Part shown: positions 4,208-11,307 of the stretch, piece after piece
How positions within the stretch are numbered: the first letter of the stretch is position 1
Layout of the letters: the number at the start of each line of letters is the position of its first letter
Source of the DNA: a virus
Taxonomy: Duplodnaviria > Heunggongvirae > Uroviricota > Caudoviricetes
DNA: 11,454 nt
IMG/VR virus record: IMGVR_UViG_2585427747_000005
Strand: one strand, 5' to 3'
Notes under the pieces: generated by a model
What the model was told of the DNA's origin: nothing
The model's input: the letters and a program-made list of their open reading frames with translations, nothing else
Databases searched by the model: none
Translations under genes and position numbers: made by a program

Positions 4208-4507
4208 ATGAAACTTAAATATTCTGGCTTAACTGCCAGTGGCAACACTCACCCTAAATTTACGCGCGGCGATATTTACCGCGACCAGTACGGCGGCACG
4301 GTAATGATTAAGGGCGTGGAAGAACGGCGCGTAACCTACCGCCGTGAAGGTTACGAATATGATTGCGTGATGCCTGTTTATCAGTTCCGGCGTGATTTTT
4401 CTCTGGTACAGACCGCGCCGCATAACGTGTCCACCAGCAACGCCAGGGCACGGGCAAACATCCAGAAGCTGAAAACCATGATTAACGGATTCAGGGGTAA
4501 AAAATGA
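4208..4507 (+). CDS. Hypothetical protein
   Basis: 99-aa ORF, GGAGA Shine-Dalgarno; stop overlaps the start of the replication gene (ATGA). Confidence 0.5.
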   Translation: MKLKYSGLTASGNTHPKFTRGDIYRDQYGGTVMIKGVEERRVTYRREGYEYDCVMPVYQFRRDFSLVQTAPHNVSTSNARARANIQKLKTMINGFRGKK

Positions 4508-6258
4508 AACTGGCACCGAACGTAAAACAGCAGTCACGCGGCATAAAACACAAAGAAACAGAAGTCATTATTTTTGCGGGTAGTGATGCCTGGTCACACG
4601 CAAAACAATGGCAGGAACATGACGCGCGTATGGCCGGAGATAATGAGCCTCCTGTGTGGCTTGGGGAGCAGCAGTTATCCGAACTGGATAAGCTGCAAAT
4701 TGTGCCGGAAGGCAGAAAATCCGTGCGCATATTCAGGGCCGGATATCTTGCGCCAGTAATGATAAAGGCGATTGGTCAGAAGCTGGCGGCGGCAGGCGTA
4801 CAGGATGCAAATTTTTACCCTGATGGTATGCACGGTCAGAAGGTGGAGAACTGGCGCGAATATCTGGCCCGTGAGCGCCAGAATCTTTCTGATGGTCTGG
4901 TCATTGAGCTTCCGGTAAAGCAAAAGGCGCAACTTTCGCAGATGGCGGACAGTGAGCGCGCGCAGCTGCTTGCCGATCGCTTTGATGGCGTTTGCGTACA
5001 TCCTGAAAGTGAAATCGTTCACGTATGGCGCGGCGGGGGATGGTGTCCGGTCAGCACAATGGAACTTAGCCGCGAAATGGTGGCGATCTATTCAGAGCAC
5101 AGGGCCACTTTCAGCAAGCGCGTAATCAATAACGCCGTGGAAGCGTTAAAAGTTATTGCCGAACCAATGGGCGAGCCGTCCGGCGATTTGTTGCCGTTCG
5201 CCAATGGTGCGCTTGACCTGAAAACGGGGGAATTTTCCCCGCACACGCCGGAGAACTGGATCACCACGCACAACGGCATTGAGTACACGCCACCAGCACC
5301 AGGGGAGAACATCCGCGATAACGCGCCAAACTTTCATAAATGGCTTGAGCACGCAGCCGGAAAAGACCCGCGCAAGATGATGCGTATATGTGCCGCGCTG
5401 TACATGATTATGGCGAACCGGTACGACTGGCAGATGTTTATTGAGGCCACCGGAGACGGCGGGAGCGGTAAAAGTACATTCACACACATAGCCAGCCTTC
5501 TGGCAGGGAAACAGAACACGGTAAGCGCTGAAATGACATCGCTTGATGATGCTGGTGGACGTGCGCAGGTTGTCGGGAGTCGTCTTATCGTCCTGGCTGA
5601 CCAGCCGAAATATACAGGCGAAGGAACGGGCATCAAGAAAATCACGGGCGGTGACCCCGTGGAAATTAACCCGAAATACGAAAAGCGTTTCACGGCGGTA
5701 ATCAGGGCGGTGGTGCTGGCGACCAACAATAACCCGATGATATTCACCGAACGGGCCGGAGGTGTGGCACGTCGTCGCGTGATTTTCCGTTTCGACAATA
5801 TCGTCAGTGAGGCCGAAAAAGACAGGGAGCTACCGGAAAAGATCGCGGCTGAAATCCCTGTCATTATCCGCCGATTGCTGGCGAACTTTACCGACCCTGA
5901 GAAGGCACGGGCTTTACTACTGGAACAGCGTGACGGTGATGAAGCTCTGGCAATAAAGCAACAGACGGATCCGGTTATTGAGTTTTGCCAGTTCCTGAAT
6001 TTTCTGGAGGAAGCGCGCGGCCTGATGATGGGGGGCGGTGGCGATTCAGTGAAGTACACGACCAGGAACAGCCTTTACCGCGTCTATCTGGCGTTTATGG
6101 CATACGCAGGCAGGAGCAAACCGCTAAACGTAAATGACTTTGGCAAGGCTATGAAGCCAGCCGCGAAAGTTTACGGACATGAATATATTACGCGGAAAGT
6201 TAAGGGAGTAACGCAGACTAACGCAATAACAACAGACGATTGCGACGCGTTTTTATAA
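4504..6258 (+). CDS. Replication initiator: P4-alpha-family primase C-terminal domain / SF3-type NTPase
   Basis: 584 aa; Walker A GDGGSGKST, Walker B-like RLIVLADQ, D5_N-like segment LPFANGALDLKTGEF; no obvious TOPRIM primase motif seen in the N-terminal third. Confidence 0.85.
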   Translation: MKLAPNVKQQSRGIKHKETEVIIFAGSDAWSHAKQWQEHDARMAGDNEPPVWLGEQQLSELDKLQIVPEGRKSVRIFRAGYLAPVMIKAIGQKLAAAGVQDANFYPDGMHGQKVENWREYLARERQNLSDGLVIELPVKQKAQLSQMADSERAQLLADRFDGVCVHPESEIVHVWRGGGWCPVSTMELSREMVAIYSEHRATFSKRVINNAVEALKVIAEPMGEPSGDLLPFANGALDLKTGEFSPHTPENWITTHNGIEYTPPAPGENIRDNAPNFHKWLEHAAGKDPRKMMRICAALYMIMANRYDWQMFIEATGDGGSGKSTFTHIASLLAGKQNTVSAEMTSLDDAGGRAQVVGSRLIVLADQPKYTGEGTGIKKITGGDPVEINPKYEKRFTAVIRAVVLATNNNPMIFTERAGGVARRRVIFRFDNIVSEAEKDRELPEKIAAEIPVIIRRLLANFTDPEKARALLLEQRDGDEALAIKQQTDPVIEFCQFLNFLEEARGLMMGGGGDSVKYTTRNSLYRVYLAFMAYAGRSKPLNVNDFGKAMKPAAKVYGHEYITRKVKGVTQTNAITTDDCDAFL

Positions 6259-6546: not shown

Positions 6547-6804
6547 ATGCGCACATCAGGAAAACTTAATAATCAGAAGAAGCAGCATAACCGCGCCATT
6601 GACCTTACAGAGCACTGGCTGAGAGTGGCGATAAAAATCATCGACCGCAACACGGGGGAAGGATACGCGAAAGCACATCCCGACCTGATAAGCGCATTCA
6701 TGACCACGGCGGCGGCAAACTTTGCCACGCTGACAGAACGGGAGATTGCCGAAGCGGAACAGGTAACAACCATCAACGTTAAAACCGGAGAGGTGGAATC
6801 ATGA
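6547..6804 (+). CDS. Hypothetical protein
   Basis: 85-aa ORF with a GAGGGGG Shine-Dalgarno; stop overlaps the SSB start (ATGA). Confidence 0.5.
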   Translation: MRTSGKLNNQKKQHNRAIDLTEHWLRVAIKIIDRNTGEGYAKAHPDLISAFMTTAAANFATLTEREIAEAEQVTTINVKTGEVES

Positions 6805-7223
6805 CAGCACAGATAGCAGCTTACGGGCGGCTGGTGGACGACCCGCAGGTAAAACAGACCAGCAAGGGCACACCAATGACGCTGGCACGTATGGCGGTCC
6901 CCCTTCCGTGCAGCCAGGCAGATGACGGAACGGCGACGATGTGGTTATCCGTCCTGGCATTTGGCAGACAGGCCGAAGCACTGGAAAGGCACCGCAAGGG
7001 TGAACTCCTGAGCGTGGCGGGTAACATGCAGATCAGCCAGTGGACTGGGCAGAACGGAGAAACGCGGCAGGGCTGGCAGGTTATCGCAGACAGTGTAATC
7101 AGTGCGCGAACGGCGCGACTGGGCGGCAAAAAAGGTCAACAGGGCCAGGCTACTGACGCGCTGAACAGGGCAAAACAACAGGCGGGGAATGATGATCCGT
7201 ACGGGGATAACATACCGTTTTAA
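6801..7223 (+). CDS. ssb: Single-stranded DNA-binding protein (SSB-like)
   Basis: 140 aa; OB-fold-like conserved positions (W..V.AFG..AE, RKG, W....G..R) and an acidic C-terminal tip DDPYGDNIPF resembling the E. coli SSB D-IPF tail. Confidence 0.75.
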   Translation: MTAQIAAYGRLVDDPQVKQTSKGTPMTLARMAVPLPCSQADDGTATMWLSVLAFGRQAEALERHRKGELLSVAGNMQISQWTGQNGETRQGWQVIADSVISARTARLGGKKGQQGQATDALNRAKQQAGNDDPYGDNIPF

Positions 7224-7638: not shown

Positions 7639-7845
7639 ATGGCTGAAGAGAAAAAAGGCGGTGTTTCGGTGTACATAAGCCCCGAAATCGTGGAGGTGCT
7701 CAAGCAGCGCCACAAAAAAAACTATGAGGCTGGCGTGGCGGCTGGACTGGATCCGCTGATGACGCCGGAGCCGTCGATAGGTTCACTTGTACGCTCTTAT
7801 TTACTTGCGGCGCTTGGGATGCATAAAAATTATGGGGGTGAATAA
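7639..7845 (+). CDS. Hypothetical small protein upstream of the capsid gene
   Basis: 68-aa ORF; stop overlaps the capsid start (TAATG); possible strand-helix start (VSVYISPEIVEVLKQ). Confidence 0.5.
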   Translation: MAEEKKGGVSVYISPEIVEVLKQRHKKNYEAGVAAGLDPLMTPEPSIGSLVRSYLLAALGMHKNYGGE

Positions 7846-8900
7846 TGGCAGGCAAAGCAACGGCACTTAACACTCACCAGCTTTTTGCGTACCTGAATCG
7901 CGGGGATATTGCGGAATTTAAATTTAGTCCGCTGTTTACCACGCTGTTTTTCCCGAAAGTAGCGACATTCAACACCCAAAACATCATGCTGGATAACCTG
8001 GACACCGAAGAAGTCACTATGTCAGCGTTTTGCTCGCCTATGGTTGGTAGCCAGGTACAGCGCGATAAAGGGTACGAAACCAGCACGATTAAACCTGGCT
8101 ACATGAAGCCAAAGCACGAAATCGATCCAACAAAAACCATCATGCGCATGGCTGGAGAAGATCCGGCACAGCTTAACGACCCAACCTATCGCCGTATGCG
8201 CCTGATTACTGGCAACATGCGCCGCCAGGTAAACGCTATTAAAGCGCGTGTTGAATGGCTGGCGGTAAATGCGGTAACGACCGGAAAAAACATCATTGAG
8301 GGCGAAGGCATAGAACGCTATGAAATCGACTGGAAGATGCCGGAAAACAACATCATAGAGCAGGCCAAAGGCCGTAAATGGTCCGAGCAGGACAAAGAAA
8401 CCCACGATCCAATCTATGATATCGAGCTTTATGCGGATCAGGGCAATTGCCCCGCAAACGTCATGATTATGGGCGCTGAGGTATGGCGCACGTTACGCAG
8501 CTTTAAAAAATTCCGCGAACTGTACGATCTTTCCCGTGGTTCAGAATCCGCCGCAGAACTGGCCTGTAAAAACCTGGGCGAAGTGGTGAGCTTTAAAGGC
8601 TATCTGGGCGATATTGCCCTTATCGTCTATTCCGGCAAATACGCCGACAGCGACGGCACCGAAAAACATTTCCTTGAGCCTGATTTGCTGGTCTTGGGCA
8701 ACACCAACAATAAAGGGCTGGTTGCTTATGGTGCGATTATGGATCAGGAAGCGGTAAGAACGGGCGCAACGCAAAACATGTACTACCCGAAAAACTGGAT
8801 TGAGGACGGCGATCCGGCGATTGAGTACGTGCAGACGCACAGCGCACCGCAGCCGGTGCCGGCAGACATTCGCAAATTTGTTACCGTCAAAATTGGTTAA
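7845..8900 (+). CDS. Major capsid protein, lambda gpE family
   Basis: 351 aa; FKFSPLF..LFF, PGYMKPKHE, EDPAQLNDPTYRRMR, YPKNWIEDGDPAIEY..SAP match remembered lambda gpE segments (FKFDPLF..LFF, PGYVKPKHE, EDPQNLADPAYRRRR, YPKNWVTTGDPAREF..SAP). Confidence 0.9.
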   Translation: MAGKATALNTHQLFAYLNRGDIAEFKFSPLFTTLFFPKVATFNTQNIMLDNLDTEEVTMSAFCSPMVGSQVQRDKGYETSTIKPGYMKPKHEIDPTKTIMRMAGEDPAQLNDPTYRRMRLITGNMRRQVNAIKARVEWLAVNAVTTGKNIIEGEGIERYEIDWKMPENNIIEQAKGRKWSEQDKETHDPIYDIELYADQGNCPANVMIMGAEVWRTLRSFKKFRELYDLSRGSESAAELACKNLGEVVSFKGYLGDIALIVYSGKYADSDGTEKHFLEPDLLVLGNTNNKGLVAYGAIMDQEAVRTGATQNMYYPKNWIEDGDPAIEYVQTHSAPQPVPADIRKFVTVKIG

Positions 8901-8911
8901 CGGGGGATTCT

Positions 8912-9247
8912 ATGAACACTCCATACATTGAGTTATTTGCAGGCAGTCAGCAGGTATCCACGACGCTGGTACATTTTGCCGCTGATGCTGGCGTCATTCA
9001 GGAATTTACCCCGCTGATGCTGGCGGACAATGGCGAGTTTAAGCCGTGGGATGGTCAGGCGTCCGGAAAGGCTGTTTATCTGACTTCGTACCCCGTGGAC
9101 ACGTCAAAGCAGAAATCAGCACAGTGCTACAAGACGGGGATCTTTAATATCGCCGCCGTGAACTGGCCCGAGAGCGTCGACACCGATGCGAAAAAATGCG
9201 CCGCCTTTGCGGGTTCTGGCGTATCCGTTCAGCCGCTGGCCCGATAA
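8912..9247 (+). CDS. Head decoration protein, lambda gpD family
   Basis: 111 aa; TPLMLADNG..WDGQASGKAV...YKTGIFN..WPE...KKCAAFAGSGVSV parallels lambda gpD TPLMLDTSS..WDGTTDGAAV...YKSGTFR..WPE...KKRTAFAGTAISIV. Confidence 0.85.
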   Translation: MNTPYIELFAGSQQVSTTLVHFAADAGVIQEFTPLMLADNGEFKPWDGQASGKAVYLTSYPVDTSKQKSAQCYKTGIFNIAAVNWPESVDTDAKKCAAFAGSGVSVQPLAR

Positions 9248-9259
9248 GCAGGGGGAACG

Positions 9260-9673
9260 ATGGCAACGAATGAAAGCATCATGACGCTACCGCTGGCGAG
9301 TAAATTTAAAGCCGAAGCGCGGGCAATGGCTGACAGAGGTTTATCAACCTACGAGGCCGTATATCAACTCAACAAACTGGAAGAGCAGGACAAGCCGCGC
9401 GCTGATGCGATTATGGCGCTTCATGAGCATAACGACTATCAGCCGCTGTTACGTGCAATGGCAAACGTGCCTTGTATCGATGTTGGTACGGCTAAAAGCA
9501 TCCTTAGCATGACCATAGAGCAGGAACGCCAGAAGGTTGCGCCGGAGCTTACCGCAGCCTTTGAAAACTTTATGGACATGCACAGCCCGCAAGCCGTTTC
9601 AGCTGGCATGGCATACGACGGCAGAAACCCGGGCGATGATGGCGACATCGAGCGCATACTGAAAACCATCTGA
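9260..9673 (+). CDS. Hypothetical protein, last gene of the head-module operon
   Basis: 137-aa ORF with an AGGGGG Shine-Dalgarno; acidic and helical-looking; no confident homolog recognised. Confidence 0.55.
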   Translation: MATNESIMTLPLASKFKAEARAMADRGLSTYEAVYQLNKLEEQDKPRADAIMALHEHNDYQPLLRAMANVPCIDVGTAKSILSMTIEQERQKVAPELTAAFENFMDMHSPQAVSAGMAYDGRNPGDDGDIERILKTI

Positions 9674-9679
9674 GACAAG

Positions 9680-9702
9680 GCCGGAGAAATCCGGCTTTTT
9701 TT
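9680..9702 (+). terminator. Rho-independent terminator
   Basis: GCCGGA-gaaa-TCCGGC followed by 7 T; near-identical to the hairpin at 7240-7255. Confidence 0.7.
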
Positions 9703-9770
9703 ACGGGTCCTTTCCGGCATATGGACCCGTTACGGGGCGGCGACCTCGCGGGTTTTCGCTATTTATGACG
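9703..9770 (+). other. cos: Lambda-type cos site (cosQ-like segment plus cosN GGGCGGCGACCT at 9735-9746)
   Basis: ACGGGTCCTTTCCGG...CCGTTACG|GGGCGGCGACCT|CGCGGGTTTTCGCTATTTATGA matches remembered lambda cos flanks, diverging only in the cosQ-cosN spacer. Confidence 0.8.
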
Positions 9771-9835
9771 TTTTTCCGTGAAGGTGACACCACCACCACT
9801 TGATTAATATTTAACCATGCAGTTAAGGTAACATT

Positions 9836-10276
9836 ATGATTGATAAAGCTTGTTTTGTAAGTCAGCAGGAAATAGCTGAACATTTCAAGGTTAACAGAAC
9901 CACTATTCGCGCATGGACCAAACAGGGGATGCCGTATCTTAATGCGGATCGCGGAAAGTCTGGCGGTTATCACATCGGGCATACATTGCTTTGGTCTTCA
10001 GGTAAAAGCCGTCTTGAGGCCATCAGATATCACGTAGAAACCAGTGCGCTGGAAAAAATTATGTTTGCCAGGCTGCTTTCATCTGAGCGTGACGAGTACT
10101 CCAGTGAAGAAACAGAACATAGATTTGATGAAGGTTTACAGATTTACGGCTACTCACCGGAAGAAGTGAGCAAAGCGCGAAATAAAATGGCCGGCTTTCT
10201 GGCTGGGTGGCGTCATGCCGTAAGCGTTCGCCGTGCCAGCATGGAACAATCAGTCGTTACAGAACAGCAAAGTTAA
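9836..10276 (+). CDS. Terminase small subunit homolog (lambda Nu1-like wHTH); Rpp-like packaging-redirection candidate
   Basis: 146 aa; VSQQEIAEHFKVNRTTIRAWTKQGMPYL parallels lambda Nu1 KKQLADIFGASIRTIQNWQEQGMPVL; no large terminase gene in the window. Confidence 0.8.
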   Translation: MIDKACFVSQQEIAEHFKVNRTTIRAWTKQGMPYLNADRGKSGGYHIGHTLLWSSGKSRLEAIRYHVETSALEKIMFARLLSSERDEYSSEETEHRFDEGLQIYGYSPEEVSKARNKMAGFLAGWRHAVSVRRASMEQSVVTEQQS

Positions 10277-10306
10277 AAATCACTTTCTGTTACGCCATCA
10301 AATACG

Positions 10307-10460
10307 CAATACAACAACCACGTATTTTTTTAAAACTATTTGATTCAATTAGCATTTTTTTATTTTTAGCATCAAAAAAACACTATCAGGTTGTTGTATT
10401 GCTCTTTATTTTTACTTAGTTATCAAATGGATATGACAAACAATTAAACAACAACCTCCC
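10307..10460. repeat. cosB-like array: three ACAACAACC/GGTTGTTGT sites in an AT-rich segment
   Basis: CAATACAACAACC (10307-10319) and its exact inverted copy GGTTGTTGTATTG (10391-10403); third ACAACAACC at 10449-10457; lies between the terS-like stop and the inverted cosN. Confidence 0.45.
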
Positions 10461-10469
10461 TCTAAAAAA

Positions 10470-10537
10470 GCTCATAAATAGCGAAAAACCGCGAGGTCGC
10501 CGCCCCGTAACGGGCCATAATTCCAGGAAGGACCCGA
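10470..10537 (-). other. cos: Second cos copy in inverted orientation (cosN GGGCGGCGACCT on the minus strand, 10494-10505)
   Basis: Reverse complement reads CGGGTCCTTCCTGG...CCGTTACG|GGGCGGCGACCT|CGCGGTTTTTCGCTATTTATGAG, an imperfect inverted repeat of 9703-9770. Confidence 0.7.
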
Positions 10538-10569: not shown

Positions 10570-10851
10570 ATGACAGAAGCCGAACTACTGGGATTAATCC
10601 GCCGCGTTACCGGAATCAGCCAGCAGCATGACGAACAGGCCACGCAGCCGGACAGCGTGACCGCCGAAAATTACGCGCGTGTGGTTGCTGAGGTGATGCG
10701 CCGTGATGGTATCCAGCTTAATGATGTGGATATGCGCAACATACGGATCCGCGTTCTTGAAATGCTGGCCTACAATCGCCGCGTGGCACTGTATCGGGAA
10801 ACGGAGAAAATTACGTACCACTGGAAGAAGCCGGAGCGGTTACGGCGTTAA
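10570..10851 (+). CDS. Hypothetical protein
   Basis: 93-aa ORF, G-rich Shine-Dalgarno; no recognisable motif. Confidence 0.5.
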   Translation: MTEAELLGLIRRVTGISQQHDEQATQPDSVTAENYARVVAEVMRRDGIQLNDVDMRNIRIRVLEMLAYNRRVALYRETEKITYHWKKPERLRR

Positions 10852-10867
10852 CGAGTAGCGACATACC

Positions 10868-10902
10868 GTGACGGAGAGTGACAACCAGTGACACGCCGTG
10901 AC
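10868..10902. repeat. Four GTGAC motifs at exact 10-bp spacing
   Basis: GTGAC at 10868, 10878, 10888 and 10898 (cGTGACg, aGTGACa, aGTGACa, cGTGACa). Confidence 0.5.
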
Positions 10903-11243: not shown

Positions 11244-11307
11244 TTTTGCGATTTATGGCACTTTTTGTAGTGCAAATCATTTAATTAAATCAATGCGTTA
11301 AGTGAAA

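Follow-up and report, generated by a model that had tools for sequence, protein, structure and literature searches.

Why should a phage satellite carry two cos sites which face one another across a single short gene? The question is raised by a stretch of viral DNA of 11,454 nucleotides (IMG/VR record IMGVR_UViG_2585427747_000005, referred to throughout as the window), which is a phage satellite, a phage-inducible chromosomal island (PICI) of the EcCICFT073 family in Escherichia coli. Its two sites bracket rppA, the gene for a redirecting-phage-packaging (Rpp) protein. The two-cos arrangement is itself already known: the plus-strand copy is the published cos1, and the minus-strand copy the published cos2, of the sister island EcCICFT073, whose authors found a phage cosB in neither site and wondered why two should be present in some PICIs (Fillol-Salom et al. 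2018, PMC6092414; 2019, PMC6739421). The words 'inverted' and 'orientation' are never applied to the two sites in the main text of either paper, and a search of the later literature returned nothing further on cos2.

Helper-driven induction, packaging and transfer, together with interference, have been published for EcCICFT073 only (PMC6092414; PMC6739421). Rpp pairs with the small terminase subunit of the helper, TerS, and the resulting DNA-binding domain reads the island cosB instead of the phage cosB (PMC6739421). RppA stimulates only cos1, cosB swaps show the cos1 cosB to be the determinant, and the phage TerS is still required when RppA is present (PMC6092414; PMC6739421). A plasmid bearing either of the two sites can be transferred by lambda or phi80; in the island, deletion of cos1 lowers transfer, deletion of cos2 raises it and deletion of both abolishes it (PMC6092414; PMC6739421). 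Since both EcCICFT073 sites start packaging when cloned, it is possible for packaging to begin in either direction, as a preliminary description of the window, made from its letters alone, had proposed.

The answer which we favour, with moderate confidence, is that cos1 serves helpers redirected by Rpp, that cos2 acts as a plug-in cos for helpers of a different family, and that the inverted orientation keeps the intervening segment from being deleted. The comparisons described below make the question posed by the EcCICFT073 authors testable, with a cos2 which would be phage-derived, exchanged as a cassette, able to replace Rpp and covarying in cosN with cos1. The Rpp/cos1/cos2 module is central to the takeover of lambdoid phages by Gram-negative satellites, and such islands are under development as DNA-delivery vehicles. 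The known mechanism is not overturned and the additions to it are modest: a phage origin for cos2, rpp-less islands with two phage-type cos sites, covariation of cosN and a natural flip of the segment.

Two facing cos sites in an inverted repeat

An exact cosN sequence, GGGCGGCGACCT, occurs at 9735-9746 on the plus strand and again at 10494-10505 on the minus strand, with no further match in the window even when one mismatch is allowed (0.06 expected by chance). The two copies lie within an inverted repeat, correctly recognised in the preliminary description but put there at about 65 bp, whose arms (9704-9775 and 10465-10536) measure 72 nucleotides, are 86% complementary and stand 689 nucleotides apart. 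Each arm carries the cosQ heptamer GGGTCCT (9705-9711 on the plus strand, 10529-10535 on the minus strand) and a lambda-I2-like stretch. Read from left to right, the left arm, which is the cos1 core, thus runs cosQ, cosN, I2-like stretch (9747-9775), and the right arm, the cos2 core on the minus strand, runs I2-like stretch, cosN, cosQ. With all three elements present in both arms, the proposal of two lambda-type cos sites in inverted orientation stands. They face each other, with their cosB sides inward, their cosQ sides outward and rppA in between. The perfect core of the repeat is 26 nucleotides long in the window and 25-26 nucleotides in the window and CFT073 taken together, and the cosQ-side halves of the arms differ in both.

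The right arm matches the cos2 arm of EcCICFT073 and aligns with the ends of lambda DNA. Both arms of the window have the 12-nucleotide cohesive end, the cosQ heptamer and the I2-like stretch in common with lambda; the window differs from lambda in having two facing sites instead of one. Between the end of the plus-strand cosN (9746) and the ATG at 9836 lie 89 nucleotides with one ACCACCACC-like motif (9787-9799), whilst three ACAACAACC sites (10311, 10389 and 10448) occupy the AT-rich segment beside the minus copy only, all as first described.

In the CFT073 genome cos1 (plus strand) and cos2 (minus strand) likewise face each other, 739 nucleotides apart. The likeness of the window to EcCICFT073 extends from this convergent geometry to a near-identical RppA, to cos1 with its ACACCACCACCAC element, to the cos2 arm, and to the flanking genes, with a gpE-like capsid gene, a gpD-like gene and the open reading frame ORF137 upstream and ORF93 downstream. 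The two islands differ in the cosB of cos2, which is of the CCGGACAT type there and of the ACAACAACC type in the window, and in location, beside phoQ there and in tqsA here.

The gene between the arms is rppA

The preliminary description took the bracketed gene for that of a small terminase. The gene is instead rppA (9836-10276, plus strand), and its product of 146 amino acids is a mimic of the TerS DNA-binding domain. RppA aligns with the structure of RppC (6HLK) over residues 2-125 (E = 2.4e-31) and differs from CFT073 RppA solely in E110D and in a few residues at the C-terminal end. TerS-like similarity was seen at residues 6-57 with the TerS chain of 6HN7 (E = 0.084), at residues 8-55 with lambda Nu1 (1J9I; E = 0.14), and with the terS family phrog_57 at residues 7-47 only. 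A search of RppA for the Phage_Nu1 Pfam family (PF07471) gave no match; the C-terminal region common to lambda Nu1 and prophage TerS proteins is missing, and with it the full-length Nu1 architecture of a small terminase. What the gene encodes is an Rpp protein, a TerS DNA-binding-domain mimic with a dimerisation region, in which the published DNA-reading residues R21, T22, R25 and K29 are invariant. In this, too, the window departs from lambda, the gene adjacent to its cos being that of a DNA-binding-domain mimic and not Nu1. An Rpp alignment run against species-representative genomes yielded no confirmed relatives; those discussed below were drawn instead from complete E. coli genomes and from exact-protein look-ups.

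cos1 and its Rpp-specific cosB

The plus-strand copy, the adjoining GTGACACCACCACCAC and the start of rppA together are the published cos1, the sequence of which is given in Fig. S1A of PMC6739421; the core is nearly base-for-base identical to EcCICFT073 cos1 in that figure and to the copy in the CFT073 genome. It joins a phage-like cosQ and cosN to an island-specific cosB adjoining rpp. This cosB lies at 9776-9835 on the plus strand, the stretch covered by the primers of the published cosB swap, although the published functional fragment extends into rppA to about 9917; the cos1 cosB confers RppA-dependent packaging (PMC6739421). The plus copy had been regarded as the weaker of the two sites, a view that must be given up, as it is the published main site, read by RppA together with TerS.

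Within the cos1 cosB a conserved element, ACACCACCACCAC-TTGATTAA, is found at 9787-9807. Alignment shows a block of the form ACACCACCACCAC-(T/A)TGATT(A/G)A to be kept between cosN and rpp across all Rpp islands, and the ACACCACCACCAC-TGATTRA element is common to the islands of E. coli encoding RppA or RppB and to those of Klebsiella and Salmonella. The ACACCACCACCAC-TTGATTAA block is thus the best candidate for the element recognised by Rpp and TerS, but might alternatively be part of the rppA promoter. A promoter scan near the rppA start returned only weak sigma-70-like matches, not above those in shuffled sequence, so that a protein-binding role and a promoter role are not separable for this block.

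cos2 is a phage-type cos

The cosB of cos2 (10291-10464, minus strand) is AT-rich and of phage type. Its three R-type sites, in the order read from cosN, are R3 (10448-10456), R2 (10389-10397) and R1 (10311-10319), arranged forward, reverse and forward like R3, R2 and R1 of lambda as given in the supplements of the EcCICFT073 papers; the lambda sites are of the CGTTTCC type, those of the window are ACAACAACC. All three match ACAACAACC exactly, the one at 10389 on the opposite strand, where 0.11 would be expected, and none of 200 shuffles reached three.

In lambdoid prophages the stretch immediately preceding Nu1-type terS genes is approximately 76% identical to this cosB. The segment between the arms, searched without them, matched 238 E. 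coli genomes at 60-80% identity, essentially in the AT-rich spacer only. In two of these genomes that were examined (prophages L002 and L003), the match lies directly upstream of terS, terL, a head-tail joining gene and a portal gene, and the terS products belong to the Phage_Nu1 family (PF07471) and match phrog_57 along their whole length. Counted from cosN, the three sites of the window stand at 46, 105 and 183 nucleotides, exactly the distances seen in prophage L002, and the rppA stop codon (10274-10276) sits about where the phage terS would start. In a four-way alignment the invariant blocks GGTTGTTGTTTAATTGTTT, ATACAACAACCT and TGGTTGTTGTAT are the three sites, whilst the remaining spacer drifts. 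Between R3 and R2 lies a conserved TATC...TTGATAA block, which falls outside the IHF consensus. Lambdoid prophages of the ACAACAACC type (for example L002, in O111 strain RM9322, with the terS product WP_001426432.1) have the cosQ, cosN, sites and spacing of the window cos2; they differ in what follows, terS, terL and portal in the prophage, and in the island the 3' end of rppA, which lies on the other strand.

Together these comparisons show that, as far as sequence can tell, cos2 of the window is a complete phage cos from a lambdoid prophage family: a cosN preceded by cosQ and followed by an I2-like stretch, aligning with prophage cos sites, and three putative TerS-binding R sites, the ACAACAACC sites, between cosN and the position of terS. 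Because they match the cosB of prophages which encode their own Nu1-type TerS, the ACAACAACC sites are more likely to be targets of phage TerS than of Rpp. The N-terminal DNA-binding region of the L002-type TerS differs from that of lambda Nu1 and also from that of Rpp, which again makes the repeats an unlikely Rpp target.

The cos2 of CFT073 holds a different cassette, with ATGTCCGG, CCGGACATG and CCGGACAT sites. These sites and their spacing are common to prophages, for example in O157:H7 EDL933 (L030), where they lie directly upstream of a Nu1-type terS. A further prophage (L031) is nearly identical to CFT073 cos2 up to the third site and again places it upstream of a Nu1-type terS; cosB segments of the CCGGACAT type were found in about 1,185 genomes.

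Exchange of cos2 cassettes and covariation of cosN

The module is mosaic in make-up. Islands whose rppA is 98% identical to that of the window carry the other, CCGGACAT-type cos2 cassette (for instance L005). An island of the RppB type (L017) has two facing cos sites, both with a quite different cosN region, ACACCG.GGGTA.....ACGCGCAAAAACGCGC, and its left copy keeps the cos1 element adjoining rpp; the same alternative cosN is joined to a ACAACAACC cosB in prophage L003. A third kind of island (the L004 type, in at least seven genomes) has no rpp and two facing phage-type cos sites, one CCGGACAT and one ACAACAACC, with both cosN copies sharing the variant GGGCGTCGACCT. In the example from E. 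coli strain 135 (L004 3735-4345), and in the further hits H241-H247, the facing sites span only 3' remnants of rpp. The alignments show the cos2 cosB to have been exchanged as a cassette between islands, and they show the two cosN copies to covary from island to island, both sites apparently being tuned to one nuclease.

There is a precedent for a phage cos in a satellite: a PICI of the same broad family and the prophage that serves as its helper have 258 bp of cos region in common (PMC10111431). The cos region of this helper-embedded island, 11capE, is about 90% identical to that of its lambdoid helper; it differs from the present case in being one shared region with no facing pair, and Rpp and inversion are not discussed (PMC10111431). 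Two putative cos sites have also been stated for SaPIbov4 (PMC6092414). SaPIbov4 and SaPIbov5, compared here by description only, are likewise satellites packaged from cos by a helper terminase, but their sequences and hosts are unrelated and they have no Rpp.

Why two sites, and why inverted

Lambda-type termination of packaging is polar, requiring cosQ and then cosN, and it is on this that the argument from orientation is based. At cos1 a heterodimer of RppA and helper TerS reads the short cosB and diverts the helper terminase to the island, as published for the sister island. We suggest that cos2 would allow direct packaging by helpers whose Nu1-type TerS reads ACAACAACC, Rpp being unneeded, and that islands would swap the cos2 cosB cassette to suit other helper families. 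The inverted orientation would make two cos sites tolerable, as packaging runs would end only at a site of the same orientation one island unit further on; two direct copies would yield packaged molecules lacking or duplicating the 760-bp rppA segment. With a non-cognate helper, a packaging run begun at cos1 would be aborted by a cut made 760 bp in front of it, at cos2, and such stray cutting would explain why lambda transfer rises when cos2 is deleted. The arms may occasionally recombine, giving homogenised arms and, rarely, a flipped segment.

A number of observations weigh against an active role for cos2 with a second helper family. No exact WATCAANNNNTTR, the expected IHF site (I1) between R3 and R2, is present in the cos2 spacer, the only match in the window being at 11288; in lambda terms, the cos2 cosB has no exact IHF consensus. 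Searched against 50,697 phage records, cos2 with its cosB gave matches in the arms only, so that no ACAACAACC-type cosB was found there, and the window-type host genomes listed contain no co-resident ACAACAACC-type prophage (one match place each). The published native helper of CFT073, the icd prophage, has a phage-21-like cosB which does not match CFT073 cos2. A second CCGGACAT-type copy is present in 44 of 60 island-bearing genomes against a background of about 21%, a figure that ignores kinship and counts copies whose loci are uncharacterised. Finally, the Rpp islands of Klebsiella and Salmonella have cos1 alone.

A broader proposal, which we put forward tentatively and hold to be somewhat improbable as a whole, is that the cos arms are portable joints: since every lambdoid helper and every island has cosQ-cosN-I2 in common, recombination in the arms would let islands plug in the complete cosB of a local helper, and the same geometry would permit a recombinase-free flip of the segment. 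If true, this would account both for islands combining Rpp with a phage cos and for rpp-less islands with a pair of phage cos sites, and the question put by the EcCICFT073 authors would have its answer.

The principal competitor to a plug-in cos is that cos2 is an evolutionary leftover, the scar of a phage recombination event which brought in a cos along with the ancestor of rpp, and that it now works weakly, gives no benefit and is mildly harmful. This agrees with the published increase in transfer by lambda and phi80 on deletion of cos2, with the cos2-less islands of Klebsiella and Salmonella, and with the mismatch between CFT073 cos2 and the cosB of its native helper. A leftover would nevertheless not be expected to keep cosQ, cosN and three R-type sites intact in several island lineages while the spacer diverges, nor to have its cosN covary with the other copy across three cosN types. 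One and the same position is filled by intact phage cassettes of different kinds, and a pair of phage-type cos sites persists even in islands that lack rpp; a relic that did harm would be expected to degenerate, not to be exchanged for fresh copies. We therefore consider the leftover explanation unlikely.

Less probable again is that cos2 acts as an anti-phage decoy, the amplified island copies soaking up helper TerS and terminase and so adding to the interference exerted by Rpp. An authentic phage cos on an island which replicates with its own primase would be suited to such a role, and PICIs of the EcCICFT073 family do block helper packaging (PMC6739421). The published interference is, however, explained by Rpp alone. 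The preliminary idea of one copy as a decoy fits only loosely with the published rise in lambda transfer on cos2 deletion, and a decoy is in any case inseparable from an alternative start site, since a terminase which cuts cos2 would package the island anyway.

Inversion of the segment in nature

Besides these functional proposals, it had been suggested that the segment might invert by recombination. The flipped isomer of the window was built in silico and searched in 5,426 complete E. coli genomes, 15 of which match across both junctions; the 16% left uncovered is the differing cos2 cassette, and all 15 carry a CFT073-type module. In one flipped genome, NR329 (L006), rppA lies on the strand opposite the capsid, decoration, ORF137 and ORF93 genes, whilst HM670 (L005) has the same proteins and the same phoQ site but a co-directional rppA. 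Positions 3204-4016 of L006 are the reverse complement of 3929-4741 of L005, with 100% identity over 813 nucleotides and collinear flanks. In the flipped state the left-arm cosQ-cosN continues into the cosB of cos2, and the right arm into cos1-rppA. The suggestion has thus proved sound, with the exact flipped isomer occurring as a rare event.

Among the complete genomes, the CFT073-type islands number about 38 co-directional (a count which includes four CFT073 assemblies and strain 042) and 15 flipped. Flipped isomers were sought without success among window-type islands (0, versus about 44 co-directional) and RppB-type islands (0, versus 11 co-directional), and the exact window RppA is co-directional in all nine of the distinct assembly contexts in which it occurs. 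Six flipped loci, from Japan, China, Thailand, the USA, Australia and New Zealand, show no differences over 17.2 kb of island and chromosome, which points to one event, stably inherited; the co-directional islands occupy other host lineages than the flipped ones. Recurrent flipping among the 15 genomes was considered and rejected on account of this identity among the six loci sampled. The flipped arrangement has left another, independent trace in the left half of L004, where a CFT073-type cos2 in flipped position is followed by antisense and then sense 3' ends of rpp.

In the HM670/NR329 group the left half of the repeat has been converted to right-arm sequence, and the 47-nucleotide perfect repeat which results is a footprint of gene conversion. 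As the flip arose in this background, occasional homologous recombination is favoured. A recombinase-free route is also geometrically possible, in which both facing cosN sites are cut and the inner fragment, bearing two identical 5'-GGGCGGCGACCT overhangs, re-anneals either way; the breakpoint falls within the perfect core, so the two routes are inseparable.

The two orientations of a 100% identical 813-nucleotide block between collinear flanks, together with the trace in L004, might be taken to suggest that the inverted repeat is a programmed invertible switch which sets rppA expression or packaging direction. The segment does resemble Hin, Gin and Cin and fimS, as a short stretch between inverted repeats found in both orientations. 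It differs from them in having no dedicated recombinase, in a flip that appears as a rare event fixed in one clone, and in repeats that are functional cos sites. No invertase gene adjoins it, the six flipped loci from six countries point to one clone and one event, and no reversion is seen among the 15 flipped genomes. Nor is any flipped copy found among the window-type islands, the RppB-type islands or the contexts of the exact window protein, and the flip lies in a lineage with 47-nucleotide perfect-repeat arms, as expected for occasional homologous recombination. A programmed switch is accordingly very improbable. The genomes compared instead show at least one natural inversion between facing cos sites, to all appearances rare and not a working switch. 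Such an inversion matters for the engineering of these islands and for the interpretation of assemblies.

The remaining explanation, that of the preliminary description, in which the island's own small terminase binds the ACAACAACC repeats and launches packaging both ways, has next to no probability in spite of the resemblance of the RppA N-terminus to the Nu1 winged-helix DNA-binding domain, being contradicted both by the identity of RppA (aligned with RppC over residues 2-125, terS-like only at about 6-57 and devoid of the Nu1 C-terminal region) and by published work in which the phage TerS is still required and RppA acts through the cos1 cosB (PMC6092414; PMC6739421).

Island context and neighbouring genes

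The window has the make-up of an Rpp-type cos PICI, with a terminal integrase, an AlpA-type regulator and a primase/replication module in a single direction. The integrase (1-1218) matches PF00589 and PF13356, the AlpA regulator (1584-1772) matches PF05930 (E = 5.4e-17), and domain matches identify a D5-type primase (D5_N/DUF5906; 4504-6258) and SSB (6801-7223). In deposited genomes the island of the window is about 11 kb long and is inserted in tqsA, the AI-2 transporter gene, which it interrupts (L001 1309-2214 and 13712-13855). Elsewhere the integration neighbours are phoQ for the CFT073 type, yejO for one island of the L004 type and an autotransporter gene for the RppB-type L017.

Upstream of cos1, positions 7639-9673 of the window hold an ORF of 68 amino acids, the capsid gene, the decoration gene and ORF137. 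The major capsid protein is lambda gpE-like (PF03864, 4e-50) and the decoration protein gpD-like (PF02924, 6e-18), whilst ORF137 belongs to phrog_1999, with a weak match to the C-terminal part of a head-maturation-protease family, and may be scaffold-like. EcCICFT073 is annotated with these same capsid-side genes, although the 2018 paper describes that island as without capsid morphogenesis genes (PMC6092414). The possession of its own E, D and scaffold-like proteins by an 11-kb island suggests capsid-size redirection. A variant island encoding the exact window RppA (L037; GCA_017910855.1) lacks the genes for capsid, decoration protein and ORF137, and its cos/rpp module is immediately preceded by SSB.

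A terminator-like hairpin with a T-run (9677-9702, plus strand) closes the capsid/ORF137 operon just before the cosQ of cos1. The fold of 9672-9706 has an energy of -14.6 kcal/mol (z = -4.7), and none of 200 shuffles was equally stable; a consensus terminator scan did not flag the 9677-9702 hairpin, its sole flag being the cosN palindrome, which we take to be an artefact. As the hairpin stands between the ORF137 stop codon and the cosQ of cos1, transcription of rppA may not be a mere continuation of that of the capsid genes, and for the same reason a flip of the segment need not silence rppA.

The Rpp islands of Salmonella have an extra ORF of 142 amino acids between cos1 and rpp (L026 2076-2504), which proved unrelated to ORF137 when the two were compared. 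The L026 island adjoins lambda-like head-completion and tail genes (Packaging_FI, Phage_attach, Minor_tail_Z) and may lie within a prophage or beside one.

On the other side of the module, ORF93 (10570-10851), a member of phrog_1561 to which no function is assigned, always lies just outside the cosQ of cos2, in the window and in CFT073-type, RppB-type and rpp-less islands alike. Just past its stop codon, GTGAC recurs at 10868, 10878, 10888 and 10898 with an exact 10-nucleotide spacing, preceded by GCGAC at 10858. The array spans 10858-10902, and Tandem Repeats Finder puts the period at 10 and the copy number at 2.8. It looks like a set of helically phased protein-binding sites.

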